Under the pieces are notes generated by a model. That model was given only the letters and a program-made list of their open reading frames with translations. It had not been told where the DNA came from and did not search any database. Source: Escherichia coli (GTDB taxonomy: Bacteria; Pseudomonadota; Gammaproteobacteria; Enterobacterales; Enterobacteriaceae). From it: a stretch of 64,000 bases of DNA. How positions within the stretch are numbered: the stretch's first letter is position 1; each line of letters starts with the position of its first letter. Below, piece after piece: positions 11,456-18,390 of the stretch. The stretch lies in NCBI RefSeq assembly GCF_016026235.1, contig NZ_CP065613.1. One strand, given 5' to 3'. Position numbers and translations under genes: made by a program.

Positions 11456-12034
11456 GTGGAATACCGTAGCCTGACGCTTGATGATTTTTTATCGCGCTTT
11501 CAACTTTTGCGCCCGCAAATTAACCGGGAAACCCTAAATCATCGTCAGGCTGCCGTGTTAATCCCCATCGTCCGTCGACCGCAACCGGGGTTGTTGCTGA
11601 CTCAGCGTTCAATTCATCTGCGTAAACACGCTGGACAAGTGGCATTCCCTGGAGGTGCAGTCGATGACACGGACGCATCAGTTATCGCCGCCGCGCTGCG
11701 CGAAGCTGAAGAAGAGGTCGCTATACCGCCTTCCGCCGTTGAAGTTATCGGCGTGCTGCCGCCCGTCGATAGCGTAACTGGCTATCAGGTAACCCCAGTG
11801 GTCGGCATTATCCCGCCCGATCTGCCGTATCGCGCCAGTGAAGATGAAGTCTCGGCGGTGTTTGAAATGCCGCTCGCCCAGGCATTACATCTGGGTCGTT
11901 ATCACCCTTTAGATATCTACCGCCGTGGCGATTCACATCGGGTATGGCTGTCCTGGTACGAACAGTATTTTGTATGGGGAATGACCGCAGGCATAATTCG
12001 TGAGCTGGCGCTGCAAATTGGTGTGAAACCCTGA
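11456..12034 (+). CDS. nudL: CoA pyrophosphohydrolase NudL (Nudix)
   Basis: 192-aa ORF with Nudix box ([22 protein letters not shown]). Confidence 0.85.
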
Positions 12035-12217
12035 CTATACTTATCTTTACATCTACAAAACACTACTTGAGACAATCATCGCAATATTAGTTAAATCGCG
12101 GTTTTTGATTAGTTTAATTCATGTGAATAGTTAAGCCAGTCGCCGCGTTCCCTCTTACACTATGCGCTGTTATTAGTTCGTTACTGGAAGTCCAGTCACC
12201 TTGTCAGGAGTATTATC

Positions 12218-13582
12218 GTGATTAGTCTATTCGACATGTTTAAGGTGGGGATTGGTCCCTCATCTTCCCATACCGTAGGGCCTATGAAGGCGGGTAAACA
12301 GTTCGTCGATGATCTGGTCGAAAAAGGCTTACTGGATAGCGTTACTCGCGTTGCCGTGGACGTTTATGGTTCACTGTCGCTGACGGGTAAAGGCCACCAC
12401 ACCGATATCGCCATTATTATGGGTCTTGCAGGTAACGAACCTGCCACCGTGGATATCGACAGTATTCCCGGTTTTATTCGCGACGTAGAAGAGCGCGAAC
12501 GTCTGCTGCTGGCACAGGGACGGCATGAAGTGGATTTCCCGCGCGACAACGGGATGCGTTTTCATAACGGCAACCTGCCGCTGCATGAAAACGGTATGCA
12601 AATCCACGCCTATAACGGCGATGAAGTCGTCTACAGCAAAACTTATTATTCCATCGGCGGCGGTTTTATCGTCGATGAAGAACACTTTGGTCAGGATGCT
12701 GCCAACGAAGTGAGCGTGCCGTATCCGTTCAAATCTGCCACCGAACTGCTCGCGTACTGTAATGAAACCGGCTATTCGCTGTCTGGTCTCGCTATGCAGA
12801 ACGAACTGGCGCTGCACAGCAAGAAAGAGATCGACGAGTATTTCGCGCATGTCTGGCAAACCATGCAGGCATGTATCGATCGCGGGATGAACACCGAAGG
12901 TGTACTGCCAGGCCCGCTGCGCGTGCCACGTCGTGCGTCTGCCCTGCGCCGGATGCTGGTTTCCAGCGATAAACTGTCTAACGATCCGATGAATGTCATT
13001 GACTGGGTAAACATGTTTGCGCTGGCAGTTAACGAAGAAAACGCCGCCGGTGGTCGTGTGGTAACTGCGCCAACCAACGGTGCCTGCGGTATCGTTCCGG
13101 CAGTGCTGGCTTACTATGACCACTTTATTGAATCGGTCAGCCCGGACATCTATACCCGTTACTTTATGGCAGCGGGCGCGATTGGTGCATTGTATAAAAT
13201 GAACGCCTCTATTTCCGGTGCGGAAGTTGGTTGCCAGGGCGAAGTGGGTGTTGCCTGTTCAATGGCTGCTGCGGGTCTTGCAGAACTGCTGGGCGGTAGC
13301 CCGGAACAGGTTTGCGTGGCGGCGGAAATTGGCATGGAACACAACCTTGGTTTAACCTGCGACCCGGTTGCAGGGCAGGTTCAGGTGCCGTGCATTGAGC
13401 GTAATGCCATTGCCTCTGTGAAGGCGATTAACGCCGCACGGATGGCTCTGCGCCGCACCAGTGCACCGCGCGTCTCGCTGGATAAGGTCATCGAAACGAT
13501 GTACGAAACCGGTAAGGACATGAACGCCAAATACCGCGAAACCTCACGCGGTGGTCTGGCAATCAAAGTCCAGTGTGACTAA
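12218..13582 (+). CDS. sdaA: L-serine dehydratase 1
   Basis: 454-aa ORF recognised as SdaA; GTG start. Confidence 0.9.
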
Positions 13583-13712: not shown

Positions 13713-15311
13713 ATGCAAAAAGCACAACGGATCATTAAAACCTATCGCCGTAATCGAATGATTGTTTGTACGATTTGCGCACTCGTTACGCTCGCTTCGA
13801 CCCTGAGCGTGCGATTTATTTCACAGCGTAACTTAAATCAACAACGGGTAGTACAATTCGCCAATCACGCTGTAGAAGAATTAGATAAAGTACTGCTTCC
13901 CCTACAGGCAGGTAGCGAAGTCTTGCTTCCGCTGATTGGTCTGCCCTGCTCTGTCGCCCATTTGCCATTACGTAAACAGGCGGCAAAACTCCAAACTGTG
14001 CGATCCATTGGCCTGGTGCAAGACGGCACACTTTATTGCTCCAGCATTTTTGGTTATCGCAATGTGCCCGTCGTGGACATTCTGGCTGAACTTCCTGCAC
14101 CGCAACCACTTTTACGCCTGACGACCGACCGTGTCCTGATTAAAGGCAGTCCGGTTTTGATTCAATGGACGCCTGCAGCGAGCAGTAGCAATGCTGGGGT
14201 CATGGAGATGATTAACATCGACTTACTGACGGCAATGCTGCTTGAGCCACAACTGCCGCAAATCAGTAGCGCCAGCCTGACGGTGGACAAACGGCATTTG
14301 CTCTATGGTAATGGGCTGGTAGATTCCCTTCCACAACCTGAAGACAATGAAAACTATCAGGTTTCTTCGCAACGCTTTCCTTTTACCATTAACGTTAATG
14401 GTCCGGGGGCTACGGCGCTGGCATGGCACTATCTTCCAACACAATTACCGCTGGCGGTGCTGCTAAGTTTACTGGTGGGCTACATCGCCTGGCTGGCGAC
14501 CGCTTACCGAATGAGCTTTTCCCGCGAAATCAATCTGGGCCTGGCGCAACATGAGTTCGAATTGTTCTGTCAGCCTTTGCTTAATGCGCGCAGCCAGCAA
14601 TGTATTGGTGTAGAGATTTTGCTGCGCTGGAACAATCCGCGTCAGGGCTGGATTTCACCGGATGTGTTTATTCCTATCGCGGAAGAACATCATTTAATTG
14701 TGCCACTAACCCGCTATGTGATGGCAGAAACCATTCGTCAGCGCCATGTTTTCCCGATGAGTAGTCAGTTTCATGTTGGCATTAACGTCGCACCCAGCCA
14801 TTTTCGCCGTGGTGTGCTGATAAAAGATCTCAATCAGTACTGGTTTAGCGCTCACCCGATTCAGCAACTGATCCTCGAAATCACCGAACGCGATGCCTTA
14901 CTGGATGTTGATTATCGGATTGCCCGCGAGCTACATCGTAAAAACGTCAAACTGGCGATTGATGACTTCGGCACCGGCAACAGTTCATTTTCCTGGCTTG
15001 AAACATTACGTCCTGACGTGCTGAAAATTGATAAGTCATTTACCGCAGCTATAGGTTCTGACGCGGTTAACTCGACGGTGACCGATATCATCATCGCGCT
15101 GGGGCAAAGACTGAATATTGAACTGGTGGCGGAGGGCGTGGAAACGCAAGAACAGGCGAAGTATTTGCGCCGTCATGGCGTGCATATTTTGCAAGGGTAT
15201 TTGTACGCACAGCCGATGCCGCTACGTGATTTTCCCAAATGGCTGGCGGGCAGCCAACCGCCGCCCGCCCGGCATAATGGACATATCACGCCCATTATGC
15301 CGTTACGTTAA
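13713..15311 (+). CDS. pdeD: c-di-GMP phosphodiesterase PdeD (YoaD), CSS-motif sensor plus EAL domain
   Basis: Recognised as YoaD; start taken at MQKAQRIIKTY inside the 542-aa track ORF. Confidence 0.85.
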   Translation: MQKAQRIIKTYRRNRMIVCTICALVTLASTLSVRFISQRNLNQQRVVQFANHAVEELDKVLLPLQAGSEVLLPLIGLPCSVAHLPLRKQAAKLQTVRSIGLVQDGTLYCSSIFGYRNVPVVDILAELPAPQPLLRLTTDRVLIKGSPVLIQWTPAASSSNAGVMEMINIDLLTAMLLEPQLPQISSASLTVDKRHLLYGNGLVDSLPQPEDNENYQVSSQRFPFTINVNGPGATALAWHYLPTQLPLAVLLSLLVGYIAWLATAYRMSFSREINLGLAQHEFELFCQPLLNARSQQCIGVEILLRWNNPRQGWISPDVFIPIAEEHHLIVPLTRYVMAETIRQRHVFPMSSQFHVGINVAPSHFRRGVLIKDLNQYWFSAHPIQQLILEITERDALLDVDYRIARELHRKNVKLAIDDFGTGNSSFSWLETLRPDVLKIDKSFTAAIGSDAVNSTVTDIIIALGQRLNIELVAEGVETQEQAKYLRRHGVHILQGYLYAQPMPLRDFPKWLAGSQPPPARHNGHITPIMPLR

Positions 15312-15377
15312 CGCTGATATGACTTTCCGTGTCAAACCGGAATCTCTAATTTTGACGATTTTCTTTTTAGGTTTAAT

Positions 15378-15562
15378 TCCCTGAGGGCGACGTAGCAGTA
15401 AATCCGACGGTGAATCACGCTGATATTCGCGGGTTGGATACCGCATTACAGAGGTCCGTCATATGAGCCTGCCACTTTCTTACGTCGCGAATCAGCTTTG
15501 TTCCGCCGTCGCCAAGCGCTAACGTGGGTTACTCTTGTACTGGGCTACGTCGCCTTCAGGGA
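15378..15562. repeat. 19-bp imperfect inverted repeat pair (18/19) in the 3' non-coding end of the IS110-family element
   Basis: TCCCTGAGGGCGACGTAGC at 15378..15396 and GCTACGTCGCCTTCAGGGA at 15544..15562. Confidence 0.7.
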
Positions 15563-15618
15563 ACTGGTTATTCTCATTTTTTATTTGTGACATTGTGGTT
15601 GTTGTGCGACAGACATTG

Positions 15619-16707
15619 CTATTCGGCCCATATCCCAGATAAAACCCGCCAGCTCACGTGCAACAGCAACAATTGTAATATTGACATTCTTTCCTTTGGC
15701 CTGAAGTTTTCGATACCTCTTACAAAGCCTGAGTTGAGCATCCCATGCTCTGTCAATGACGGGGCGGGGTAAATTTTCCTGCCTTTTTGTATTGCCGGAC
15801 TGATGCGTGCCGGATGACGGTAACTCCACGCTGCCTCGACCAATAGCTTTCTGGCATAGCTGTTTCCGGCTTTGGTAATGCTGCCCTGATGTCTGCTTCC
15901 ACCCGATGAATATTCTGATGGCGTGATACCAAACCATGACATCAGTTGTCGTGGATGTTCAAAACGGGTCAGATCACCCAGTTCAGAAATTAATCCAACC
16001 GCAGTAATAAACTGAATCCCTCGCATGGCTTGCAGCGCCTCTACTACCGGATACAGCCTCCATTCGGTAACGGCCTCCTTCAGGGCGGATTCCAGCCGTT
16101 CACATTGTGCCTGCCGGTCTTCTATTGTACGACGGTGTTCGTCAAAAGCTAATTGTCGCCAGGGACTTTCGAATGAGTATTTGCTGAGCCAGCGTCGGTG
16201 TGCAGGGCCCCAATCTGCTCGCCCGACATAATGGACCCCATGAACCAGAAGAAACGATTTCAGACGTTGCCTTGCATGCCGTAAATCATCGCGGGCAGAT
16301 GCCCATGCCCGGGCCAAATCCCGGAATGCCTCATCTTCAATGCCGGGTACGTAGACAGCAGAAAGATCTCCTGCACGCAGTGAACGCACAAGTCTGATGG
16401 CATCACGGCGATCGGTTTTAACCCGCTCCCCCGGTTTTTTCGGGATAAGTGAGGGGGCGCAGACCATGCAGTCAAAACCGGATTTCACCAGCCGACGATA
16501 AAGTCCATAACCACAGGGCCCCGCTTCATAAACGATACTGACCTGCGATGACTTTGACCTGAGACGTTTACAAAGATTCTGAATATCAGTAGGTGATGTG
16601 CCAATTTTACCCATCAGTTCAACAGGTTCTGAATTGATAGCATAAGCGACAGTAATCGATTCTTTGTGAACATCTAACCCGACGTACAATGTGTTATTGT
16701 TGTTCAT
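15619..16707 (-). CDS. IS110-family transposase (DEDD RuvC-like N-terminal domain, IS116/IS110/IS902 C-terminal domain)
   Basis: N-terminus MNNNNTLYVGLDVHKESITVAYA and C-terminal ITAVGLISELGD...GITPSEYSSGGS...KAGNSYARKLL motifs; start taken at M17 of the 378-aa track ORF. Confidence 0.8.
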   Translation of the reverse strand: MNNNNTLYVGLDVHKESITVAYAINSEPVELMGKIGTSPTDIQNLCKRLRSKSSQVSIVYEAGPCGYGLYRRLVKSGFDCMVCAPSLIPKKPGERVKTDRRDAIRLVRSLRAGDLSAVYVPGIEDEAFRDLARAWASARDDLRHARQRLKSFLLVHGVHYVGRADWGPAHRRWLSKYSFESPWRQLAFDEHRRTIEDRQAQCERLESALKEAVTEWRLYPVVEALQAMRGIQFITAVGLISELGDLTRFEHPRQLMSWFGITPSEYSSGGSRHQGSITKAGNSYARKLLVEAAWSYRHPARISPAIQKGRKIYPAPSLTEHGMLNSGFVRGIENFRPKERMSILQLLLLHVSWRVLSGIWAE

Positions 16708-16833
16708 GCTGGCCTCCGTGGTGGAAATACCGGGGTGTAGCAACAGCTCACCCATGCGGCTCTGACAACGATGTTAACCCGCGTTAAATATCCCACGTTG
16801 GCCAGCATCTGTCTCACGGAAAGTCATACTGCC

Positions 16834-18390
16834 TTACTCATCTTCATCGTGCGCCGGTTGCTCTTTAACAATGCGAACCAGATCAACACGATAATCATTG
16901 GCTTCAATGATGGTGATATGCAGTGGCCCTACATCAATCACATCGCCCACACGGGGAATGTGACCATTTGCCGAGATCACGAGGCCCGCGACCGTCGCGA
17001 TATCATCGTCATCGGCAAGGTGCTCAACATCAAGCGCCTGCTGCAAGGCATGCAAATCTGTACCGCCTTTTACCAGCCAGCCGTCACCATCAGTAATGAT
17101 TTCCGGCGTTTCGTCAGCGTCCGGGAATTCACCCGCAATGGCTTCCAGCACATCCAGCGGCGTGACCAGACCTTGTACCACACCAAACTCGTTGGTCACG
17201 ATAACAAAGCTCCCGCGAGCACGACGCAGCACGCCCAACAGGTTGATCGGATCGAGGGTTTCCGGGACGATAATCGCCGGAGACGCCGAAGCAATCGCCG
17301 CCACATCAACGCCCTCTTCCAGCGCCACCAGCAGTTCTTTAGCACGTACGATTCCGATGATTTCATCCAGTTCACCGCGACATACCGGGAACAGGCTGTG
17401 CGGTGAGGAGAGCAGCTGCTCGCGGATTTCATCTACCCCGAGATTAGCGTCAACCCAGCTTATTTCACCGCGCGGCGTCATGATCCCGCGCAGAGAACGC
17501 GACGCCAGCGTCAGTACGCCGTTAATCATGTAACGTTCTTCTTCGGCAAATGCACCTTCCGGGATCGGCATCGGCATCGGGTTATCGGCATCGTGCTGAA
17601 CATTGGCCTGACGTTTCCCGCCCATCAAACGCAGGATAGCATCGGCAGTACGCGCTCGCAGCGGCAAAGTCGACTGGTGACGAATAAAGTTGCGACGCGC
17701 AATCTGGTTAAACACTTCGATGATGATCGAGAAGCCAATCGCGGCATACAGGTAACCTTTCGGAATGTGGAAACCGAAACCTTCTGCCACCAGACTCAGA
17801 CCAATCATTAACAGGAAGCTCAGACAGAGCACCACCACCGTGGGGTGCTGGTTAACGAATCGCGTCAGCGGTTTGGATGCCAGCAACATAACCGCCATCG
17901 CAATCACTACCGCCGCCATCATCACCGGCAGATGGTTAACCATCCCTACTGCAGTAATTACCGCATCCAACGAGAAGACGGCGTCAAGGATGACAATCTG
18001 TGTGACGACCACCCAGAAACTGGCGTAGCCTTTACCGTGGCCGGAATCATGATCGCGGTTTTCCAGCCGTTCATGCAGTTCGGTTGTTGCTTTGAACAGC
18101 AAGAATATCCCCCCGAACAACATAATCAGGTCGCGTCCGGAGAAGGAGAAATCCATGACGGTAAATAGCGGTTTGGTCAGCGTGACCATCCATGAAATCA
18201 GCGACAGCAGCCCCAGACGCATAATCAGCGCCAGTGATAACCCCAGCAAACGCGCTTTATCGCGTTGTTTTGGCGGCAGTTTGTCAGCAAGAATGGCGAT
18301 GAAGACCAGGTTATCGATACCCAGCACAATTTCGAGAACAACAAGCGTGAGTAGCCCCGCCCAAATTGAGGGGTCCATTAAGAATTCCAT
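16834..18390 (-). CDS. yoaE: TerC-family membrane protein with CBS and CorC/HlyC domains, YoaE
   Basis: 518-aa ORF recognised as YoaE. Confidence 0.9.

Follow-up and report, generated by a model that had tools for sequence, protein, structure and literature searches.

The window analyzed in this work, a stretch of 64,000 nucleotides (nt) of Escherichia coli contig NZ_CP065613.1, contains between the convergent genes pdeD (also named yoaD) and yoaE a segment that can be assigned, with a high degree of confidence, to a copy of the insertion sequence (IS) ISSso6, a member of the IS110 family and of its IS1111 group that carries a structured guide RNA, has a frameshifted transposase gene, is most likely non-autonomous, and was inserted at a target fitting its guides. 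The identity of the element, its two junctions, the frameshift, the structure of the RNA, and the covariation between guides and flanks were all observed in this analysis. The element has already been named and catalogued and the copy is an ordinary one; its guide map and its apparent preference for IS66-family elements are useful details and not a new kind of system.

Identity of the Element

The element shares 99.7 to 99.9% nucleotide identity with RefSeq copies annotated as "IS110-like element ISSso6," which occur in E. coli and, chiefly, on the invasion plasmids of Shigella. The 362-amino-acid (aa) product of its open reading frame (ORF) at 15619 to 16707 matches Pfam families PF01548 (DEDD_Tnp_IS110; residues 9 to 153, E = 6.2e-11) and PF02371 (Transposase_20; residues 223 to 296, E = 1.5e-23), scores 246.5 bits with NCBIfam model NF033542, "IS110 family RNA-guided transposase," for which the cut-off is 140, and contains the serine motif G--P----SG in the form GITPSEYSSG. 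Through residue 308, the protein is that of ISSso6 in ISfinder (375 aa). An earlier note, prepared from the sequence alone, had recognized an N-terminal DEDD-type motif and a C-terminal motif as hallmarks of the IS110 family, and the profile matches bear this out. Its suggestion that the element may be uncharacterized does not hold, because ISSso6 is present in the RefSeq annotation, in ISfinder, and in the sets of two recent studies: it is listed in Supplementary Table 5 of Durrant et al. 2024 (PMC11208160) with the entries "IS110 Group = IS1111" and "Detected Bridge RNA End = RE" (right end, RE), and its transposase is included in the protein set of Siddiquee et al. 2024 (PMC11187229). In addition, ISSso6 is one of the 12 IS types listed for S. 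sonnei 53G (Hawkey et al. 2020). No experiments specific to ISSso6 were found in the literature.

Insertion Site and Ends of the Element

The following features define the element and its surroundings.

15316 to 16832, minus strand: ISSso6 element, delimited by the K-12 empty site and by its identity to annotated copies; intact copies are 1,518 bp long.
Orientation: left end (LE) toward the high coordinates and RE toward the low ones, with transposase and RNA both on the minus strand.
15314 to 15315: CT core dinucleotide of the RE junction (AG in element orientation); K-12 has one CT, the window a CT on either side.
16833 to 16834: CT core dinucleotide of the LE junction; its T also opens the stop codon of yoaE (TTA on the plus strand).
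16815 to 16828: LE sub-terminal inverted repeat CACGGAAAGTCATA (plus strand), then a 4-nt terminal extension, CTGC.
15318 to 15331: RE sub-terminal inverted repeat TATGACTTTCCGTG (plus strand), preceded by a 2-nt terminal extension, GA.

According to the ORF listing of the window, the pdeD ORF stops at 15311 and the yoaE ORF occupies 16834 to 18390 on the minus strand, which confirms the distance of about 1.5 kb between the two stop codons given in the earlier note. The corresponding gap in K-12 MG1655 is 3 bp, and its uninterrupted target contains a single CT. The base-by-base alignment with K-12 proposed in the note fixed both junctions exactly (15315/15316 and 16832/16833): the left flank matches through 15315 (...AACGCT; ...CGTTAACGCT), the right flank matches from 16833 onward (CTTACTC...; CTTACTCATC...), and the empty site reads ...CGTTAACG-CT-TACTC.... 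The insert thus corresponds to positions 15316 to 16832 (1,517 bp) plus one added copy of the CT core. Both stop codons were kept after the insertion; that of yoaE, and with it the gene, stays intact because the core T of the LE junction doubles as its first base. When flank, IS, and flank were used as a single query, none of 5,426 complete E. coli genomes covered 80% or more of it. The view that the segment is an insertion relative to K-12 was therefore upheld by the 3-bp gap with its single CT and by the absence of an occupied site from these genomes.

The note had also held that the ends could not be set, as the family lacks terminal inverted repeats. This was contradicted: LE and RE share a perfect 14-bp sub-terminal inverted repeat (14/14 positions complementary) that has just two matches in the window and is conserved in relatives. 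Sub-terminal inverted repeats of 7 to 17 bp with short terminal extensions define the IS1111 group (Durrant et al. 2024, PMC11208160). The insertion also has the properties of IS110-type elements, namely, site specificity and no target duplication beyond the shared core (one CT in the empty site, one on each side of the occupied site). The non-coding ends are asymmetric, as had been noticed, with 125 nt at LE (16708 to 16832) and 303 nt at RE as it appears (15316 to 15618), but the latter value is not the authentic one: since the frameshift places the stop at 15619 and the reference stop is equivalent to 15581, only 265 nt are genuinely non-coding on the 3' side.

Just before its stop codon, the 3' end of pdeD contains a perfect 11-bp hairpin (CGGCATAATGG / CCATTATGCCG; 15270 to 15302) that is also present in K-12 and may be a terminator for the convergent gene pair. 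A sub-threshold match of this hairpin to a miRNA family, the sole hit of the Rfam 15 scan, was rejected as spurious.

A Structured RNA in the Right End

The RE encodes, on the minus strand, an RNA with the following elements.

15374 to 15566, minus strand: structured core (~190 nt) of the bridge/seek RNA, in which a 22-bp closing stem surrounds a target-binding and a donor-side sub-domain.
15514 to 15525, minus strand: 5' target guide, RNA 5'-ACGUUAGCGCU(U)-3', with the variable block at 15515 to 15525; pairs with top strand AG-CGTTAACGT.
15479 to 15485, minus strand: 3' target guide, RNA 5'-ACGUAAG-3', equal in sense to the left target with its core (..GTA-AG) and pairing with the bottom strand.
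15417 to 15426, minus strand: putative donor guide, core, and handshake, RNA 5'-AUAUC-AG-C(GU)-3', which reads as the RE end followed by the core and by the initial base of the right target.
15395 to 15400, minus strand: candidate for a second donor guide, RNA UACUGC, the complement of LE positions 1 to 6 (GCAGTA), located in the multi-loop junction beside the closing stem.

The minus-strand transcript of the RE folds better than shuffled sequences (z = -5.7). In an RNAalifold analysis of 17 sequences, the consensus structure was 98.1% paired, with 7 compensatory pairs as opposed to 2.5 in shuffles, and slid controls reached 35 to 45%. A pair count over 54 sequences gave 96.9% pairing, with 12 compensatory pairs and 61 cells versus 5.6 and 13.2, respectively, in shuffles, neither value being reached in any of 500 shuffles. 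A covariance model built from the alignment had one sense-strand match in the window, at 15374 to 15566 (199 bits), whereas the antisense strand scored 33 bits. A scan against Rfam 15 matched no bridge RNA family to the RE RNA. More than 60 relatives, most of them Burkholderiaceae, have conserved the structured RNA, and the guide RNA of the present copy looks intact. Expression of the RNA, its binding by the recombinase, and its requirement for excision or insertion have been reported for ISEc11, ISKpn4, ISPa11, ISPst6, ISEc21, and IS621 only.

Solo remnants of the RNA region that lack a transposase gene were also detected, for example in E. coli C10 (160 bits). These may simply be decay products; they recall the solo ssr9 copies that have reportedly been described for ISPpu9.

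Target Guides

Clear links emerge between the RNA of each element and the site that it occupies. In the alignment of 17 relatives, short hypervariable blocks are embedded in a conserved scaffold. Each element has a 5' block that is the reverse complement of its own core and right flank and a 3' block that has the sense of its own left flank and core. At non-core positions, 68 of 102 bases of the 5' block match the cognate flanks (28.7 expected), as do 57 of 85 bases of the 3' block (30.3 expected); neither figure was reached in 20,000 shuffles. Both blocks face each other in one internal loop capped by a hairpin in the RNAalifold structure. At pdeD/yoaE, the 5' guide forms 10 Watson-Crick pairs and one G.T wobble over 11 nt. 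It also reaches 1 nt into the left arm, where it matches in 13 of the 17 elements (7.4 expected), and the two target guides consequently overlap by the core plus 1 nt. Read in element orientation, the segment that pairs with the top strand lies 5' of that pairing with the bottom strand, and this guide order, as well as overlapping target guides, has been reported for IS1111-type seekRNAs (Siddiquee et al. 2024, PMC11187229). The layout proposed in the earlier note, with a guide RNA downstream of the recombinase as in the IS1111 group, is thus supported by the covariation of guides and flanks, by the compensatory pairs, and by the RE entry in the table of Durrant et al.

Two further candidates were discarded. 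The motif GAGUAA fits the local flank as a left-target guide, but it is conserved in relatives whose flanks differ and is consequently part of the scaffold. A locus that resembled a natural guide-swapped variant of ISSso6 turned out to be merely truncated by another IS, keeping only the 5' guide block.

At the RE junction, sequences other than AG also occur. AGG or GG is found in some ISSso6 copies, including the minus-strand copy at 72748 of an S. dysenteriae plasmid, and AA or GG in several relatives, with the right-target guide changed to match (UU). The LE side is always AG. As the RE-junction core varies with the guide and the LE side is fixed, the two guides can specify different cores.

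Candidate Donor Guides and Predicted Circle-Junction Promoter

The putative donor guide was detected as a 10-nt direct repeat of the RE junction, ACGCT/GATAT, at 15311 to 15320 (here and below, a slash within a sequence marks the junction). In 16 of the 17 elements, the base that follows AUAUCAG is the first base of the cognate right flank (6.6 expected; 0 of 50,000 shuffles). No signal was obtained in the same relatives for a second handshake base or for a handshake in the target loop, and no RNA column tracked LE position 1. Viewed on the CT strand, AUAUC-AG-C would correspond to a right-donor guide with one handshake base pairing with the left arm of the target, as in IS621. Donor-binding bases are often found in the multi-loop in IS1111 orthologues (Durrant et al. 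2024, PMC11208160), which is where the candidate UACUGC is located. The "CAUAUGAC" block between the two sub-domains was rejected as a donor guide, given that it is variable among relatives whose donor ends are constant and that it had no consistent flank match.

A sigma-70-like promoter was sought upstream of the start codon in the integrated copy, and none was found. The two ends nevertheless contain the halves of a predicted promoter.

15330 to 15335, minus strand: -35 hexamer TTGACA in the RE, invariant in relatives; able to contribute to a promoter only once excision has brought it next to LE in the circle.
16826 to 16831, minus strand: -10-like hexamer CAGTAT in the LE, matched with the RE -35 hexamer across the circle junction.
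Predicted circle junction: ...AAAGTCATATC-AG-GCAGTATGACTTT....

In the reconstructed RE-LE junction, TTGACA and CAGTAT are separated by 17 nt, a spacing read from sequence only. Circle-junction promoters have been reported for ISEc11, ISEc21, and IS621.

Frameshifted Transposase and State of This Copy

Three features distinguish the present copy from intact ones.

15581 to 16707, minus strand: transposase gene, frameshifted; the ORF at 15619 to 16707 encodes 362 aa, and the authentic C-terminal 67 aa lie in another frame that ends at 15581.
15785 to 15789, minus strand: frameshift site, T5 on the plus strand (A5 in the gene) versus T6/A6 in copies with an intact coding sequence (CDS).
15541, minus strand: private substitution, T on the plus strand and A in the RNA, in the multi-loop junction 5' of the target-binding sub-domain.

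The gene that the earlier note had placed at 15619 to 16707 on the minus strand does exist as an ORF but is not intact, being frameshifted after codon 308. Compared with four copies whose CDS is annotated as intact in RefSeq, the A/T run has one base fewer, and the product matches the 375-aa reference WP_001063816.1, which is identical to the ISfinder sequence, only over residues 1 to 308. The catalytic DEDD region and the SSG serine motif, both located before residue 308, are still present. Among the 67 residues that were lost is the ...VAVARELAGF(I/V)W... helix; ISCARN28, with 46% identity, and ISEc11 have both conserved it, and for this reason the 362-aa product is probably inactive. Position 15541 is G in 7 other aligned ISSso6 copies, in 8 S. 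sonnei loci, and in all 16 relatives; a second private substitution was found at 16117. In view of the frameshift after codon 308 of 375 and the one private change in the RNA, this copy is most likely non-autonomous and would be movable only with recombinase from an intact copy elsewhere, for example on an invasion plasmid.

A Shigella sonnei protein identical to the 362-aa product has been recorded on 27 contigs from many independent assemblies, including the 4.99-Mb finished record HE616528.1, and all eight S. sonnei loci checked carry the A5 allele, at three or more different chromosomal sites. These records make it almost certain that the window comes from an S. sonnei chromosome. Another 1,517-bp ISSso6 copy is flagged "frameshifted" in RefSeq, and intact 1,518-bp copies reside on Shigella invasion plasmids. 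The frameshifted allele at several S. sonnei sites was therefore presumably copied by recombinase supplied in trans from these intact copies. Transposase and RNA supplied in trans have been shown to work for ISEc11 (Siddiquee et al. 2024, PMC11187229).

In S. sonnei assemblies, the A5 allele was also seen to interrupt a gene of glycosyl-hydrolase family 1 and one of the ornithine/lysine-decarboxylase family. Two of the S. sonnei A5 loci have a common right flank but different left flanks, suggestive of a rearrangement mediated by an IS. Programmed -1 frameshifting at the A-run was considered and rejected, as the intact gene reads CAA-AAA-AGG, which is not an X-XXY-YYZ frame, and intact copies need no shift. 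A 378-aa version of the ORF, starting from an upstream ATG, was likewise dismissed; it is nowhere on record, and both ISfinder and RefSeq start the protein at MNNNN.

Apparent Preference for the Tips of IS66-Family Inverted Repeats

Sixteen ISSso6 copies were examined, namely, that of the window, six from E. coli loci, and nine from a single plasmid of S. dysenteriae (NZ_CP026809.1). In all 16, the left flank ends in GTAAG, and in 15 CG adjoins the core on the right. In at least 9 of the 16, the sequence continues as GTAAG/CGTCAACGGAGCACC... or GTAAG/CGTACAGCCTGAACC..., directly beside annotated IS66-family genes. Junctions reading GTAAG/CGTCAACGG... or GTAAG/CGTACAGCC... recur on the plasmid and at three other loci, and decayed ISSso6 remnants also adjoin IS66 debris. 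IS66-family inverted repeats, which we take to start with GTAAG, would accordingly be the habitual target: these flanks suggest that ISSso6 habitually inserts 5 bp inside the tip of such repeats and is an IS preying on another IS family. Nothing relevant on the targeting of IS66 inverted repeats by IS1111-type elements was found in the searchable literature.

The pdeD/yoaE site (GAGTAAG/CGTTAACGT) had the best guide pairing among the 12 sites scored. By its sequence, it appears to mimic the tip of an IS66 inverted repeat, and its fit to the guides, which is even better than that of the usual tips, explains the insertion at this position.

Three ISSso6 copies on the minus strand of the S. dysenteriae plasmid, at ~127 to 135 kb, are spaced at 2,990 bp and partly share their flanks, which looks like a tandem amplification of ISSso6 together with a 1.5-kb unit. 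On the same plasmid, close to an ISSso6 copy, ISEc11 is annotated within an IS66-family element (locus coordinates 11773 to 12792), and two different RNA-guided IS therefore coexist on it.

Relatives and Placement of ISSso6

A protein-seeded scan of species-representative genomes identified 77 relatives, nearly all of them Burkholderiaceae, with 64 to 88% aa identity in the best segment (64 to 81% for near-full-length matches). Most of them have a homologous non-coding region with 72 to 86% nucleotide identity. All 17 relatives for which both ends could be defined have the arrangement flank-AG / NCAG-TATGACT... ...AGTCATA-TC / AG-flank, with differing flanks. The closest relatives (71 to 81% aa identity) belong almost all to Paraburkholderia, Caballeronia, Cupriavidus, and Variovorax, and the sequence similarities point to horizontal transfer of an ISSso6-type element between Burkholderiales and Enterobacteriaceae. 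A copy on one Caballeronia plasmid is 88.5% identical in the RNA region and is likewise frameshifted.

The ISSso6 transposase aligns over its full length with that of ISCARN28 (46% identity), whereas just 129 C-terminal residues align with ISEc11 (25%) and only the C-terminal domain with IS621 (E = 1.8e-5). Among the matches listed in the ISSso6 row of the identity matrix of Siddiquee et al. (PMC11187229), identities to other transposases range from 17 to 25%. Core IS1111-family transposases are 330 to 350 aa long (Siddiquee et al. 2024, PMC11187229). Under the strict definition of Siddiquee and Hall, ISSso6 falls outside the IS1111 family, with 375 aa and no full-length match to ISEc11, which stood for the family in this comparison in place of IS1111 itself. 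ISSso6 belongs to the IS1111 group by the structure of its ends and the location of its RNA and would represent a separate deep subclade by its protein, as a length of 375 aa is outside the range of 330 to 350 aa and the alignment with ISEc11 is confined to the 129 C-terminal residues. Tentatively, and with chances that we put at slightly below even, ISSso6 and its Burkholderiaceae relatives may form a distinct deep subclade that is characterized by a target loop in mirrored arrangement, a right-target guide of 11 nt, a donor-side handshake of a single base, and a donor contact partly in the multi-loop, with ISSso6 being specialized on IS66 tips. Neither this RNA architecture nor the specialization was found in the searchable literature.

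Alternative Explanations

The presence of the segment at pdeD/yoaE is the sole point in favor of its being ancestral there and lost from K-12 and other E. coli strains. Given that none of the 5,426 complete genomes carries it at this place, that K-12 has the exact uninterrupted target with a single CT, and that ISSso6 occupies many unrelated sites, such a history has practically no chance of being correct. It is scarcely more credible that the target is chosen by the protein alone and that the conserved 3' non-coding region is an untranslated region, a terminator, or a protein-binding DNA site. This would agree with the fact that the ISSso6 RNA is known from sequence alone and with the invariance of the donor-side helices, which a DNA binding site would also display. 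However, the two hypervariable blocks follow each element's own flanks on opposite strands, the helices are maintained by compensatory changes, the signal is strongly strand-specific, the closing stem is not followed by a terminator-like U-tract, and published experiments in both branches of the family have shown an essential, programmable RNA.

As to the frameshift, A/T runs are typical places for sequencing errors of one base, such as the difference seen here, and the copy might actually be intact; but since the identical product occurs on 27 contigs of many independent assemblies, HE616528.1 among them, and A5 in all eight fetched loci, the frameshift is not an assembly error, or only with a very small probability. 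More weight, if still that of an unlikely alternative, has to be given to the possibility that the copy is autonomous and that the 362-aa variant is a functional recombinase that moved itself to pdeD/yoaE and to other S. sonnei sites. Its DEDD region and SSG motif are retained, and the same allele is found at no fewer than three S. sonnei chromosomal sites. This is countered by the loss of the helix shared with ISCARN28 and ISEc11, by the "frameshifted" flag on the other copy of the same 1,517-bp length, and by the intact invasion-plasmid copies that could act in trans, as trans supply does for ISEc11. Several points weigh against the reading preferred here, that of a non-autonomous ISSso6 copy placed by its guide RNA. 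The occurrence of the frameshifted allele at three or more sites could mean that the 362-aa protein is still active. The 54-sequence alignment was fitted to the model, and some relatives are close kin, which inflates the shuffle statistics. UACUGC (17/17) and the donor-side helices are invariant in the aligned relatives, and covariation therefore neither supports nor tests them. The function of ISSso6 is assigned by analogy with relatives sharing 25 to 46% protein identity, and the identity of the IS66 inverted repeats rests on the RefSeq/PLSDB annotation of neighboring genes and on a GTAAG start of such repeats.

Comparison with Known Systems

ISSso6 of ISfinder, which was first named from Shigella sonnei, has the same ends, sub-terminal inverted repeat, RNA region, and protein to residue 308. 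Compared with other ISSso6 copies, the one in the window has a 1-nt deletion and the private substitutions at 15541 (in the RNA) and 16117, and its pdeD/yoaE site was found occupied in no complete E. coli genome. ISCARN28 is an IS1111-group element whose bridge RNA was inspected by hand according to Extended Data Fig. 10c of Durrant et al. 2024 (PMC11208160). It resembles ISSso6 by its group and by its 46% protein identity, including the conserved C-terminal helix, and its RNA is assumed from the group rule to be encoded in the RE; the comparison covers protein and group, and ISCARN28 is a separate element with different targets.

The seekRNA systems of ISEc11, ISKpn4, and ISPa11 share with ISSso6 the sub-terminal inverted repeats, the downstream non-coding region, the circle-junction promoter (predicted for ISSso6), and an RNA in which two short segments, arranged in the same order, match opposite target strands and overlap where the element inserts. 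They differ in the transposase, that of ISSso6 having 375 aa as opposed to 330 to 350 and aligning with ISEc11 at 25% over 129 C-terminal residues. The IS621 bridge RNA system (Durrant et al. 2024; Hiraizumi et al. 2024; PDB 8WT6) is similar to that of ISSso6 in the DEDD and Transposase_20 domains, the 2-nt core that reads CT on one strand, the target-binding internal loop with left and right guides to opposite strands, and a handshake that extends the right donor guide past the core, for pairing with the left arm of the target once strands have been exchanged. In contrast to IS621, the ISSso6 RNA is encoded in the RE and not the LE, the core is AG relative to the transposase gene with the guide order reversed, the sub-terminal repeat has 14 bp instead of 2 to 3 bp, one handshake base is detectable and on the donor side only, the donor contact is probably partly in the multi-loop, and the proteins are distantly related (E = 1.8e-5).

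There is also an IS1111-type element that is said to target preferentially the inverted repeats at the ends of transposons belonging to the Tn21 family. ISSso6 likewise appears to target the inverted repeat of another mobile element, but in its case IS66-family tips, and the two are alike by description only.

Proposed Mode of Movement

Circle formation, RNA loading, and the catalytic steps are modeled on published work on relatives. An ISSso6-type element would excise as a circle, whose RE-LE junction would create a promoter. [quoted passage not shown] In the copy studied here, ACGUUAGCGCU would pair with AG-CGTTAACGT on one target strand and ACGUAAG with the other strand of ..GTA-AG, while the AUAUC-AG-C region would combine the RE end and the core with a handshake of one base to the target. 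The element would usually insert into the outermost bases of IS66-family terminal inverted repeats (GTAAG/CG...), and this copy would have been moved, or be movable, by recombinase from an intact copy such as that on an invasion plasmid.

Implications

For annotation purposes, the element is a named IS that occupies a strain-specific site, and its proper label is a pseudogene-bearing ISSso6 with exact ends. The known mechanism of IS110 recombinases is unchanged by these results. The gain for the bridge-recombinase field is modest but concrete, namely, a base-level guide map of an unstudied subclade, and the 17 relatives with different targets provide natural evidence on which positions of the RNA are programmable. 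Together with the one-base handshake rule and the preference for IS66 tips, these details could help in choosing or engineering compact recombinases.

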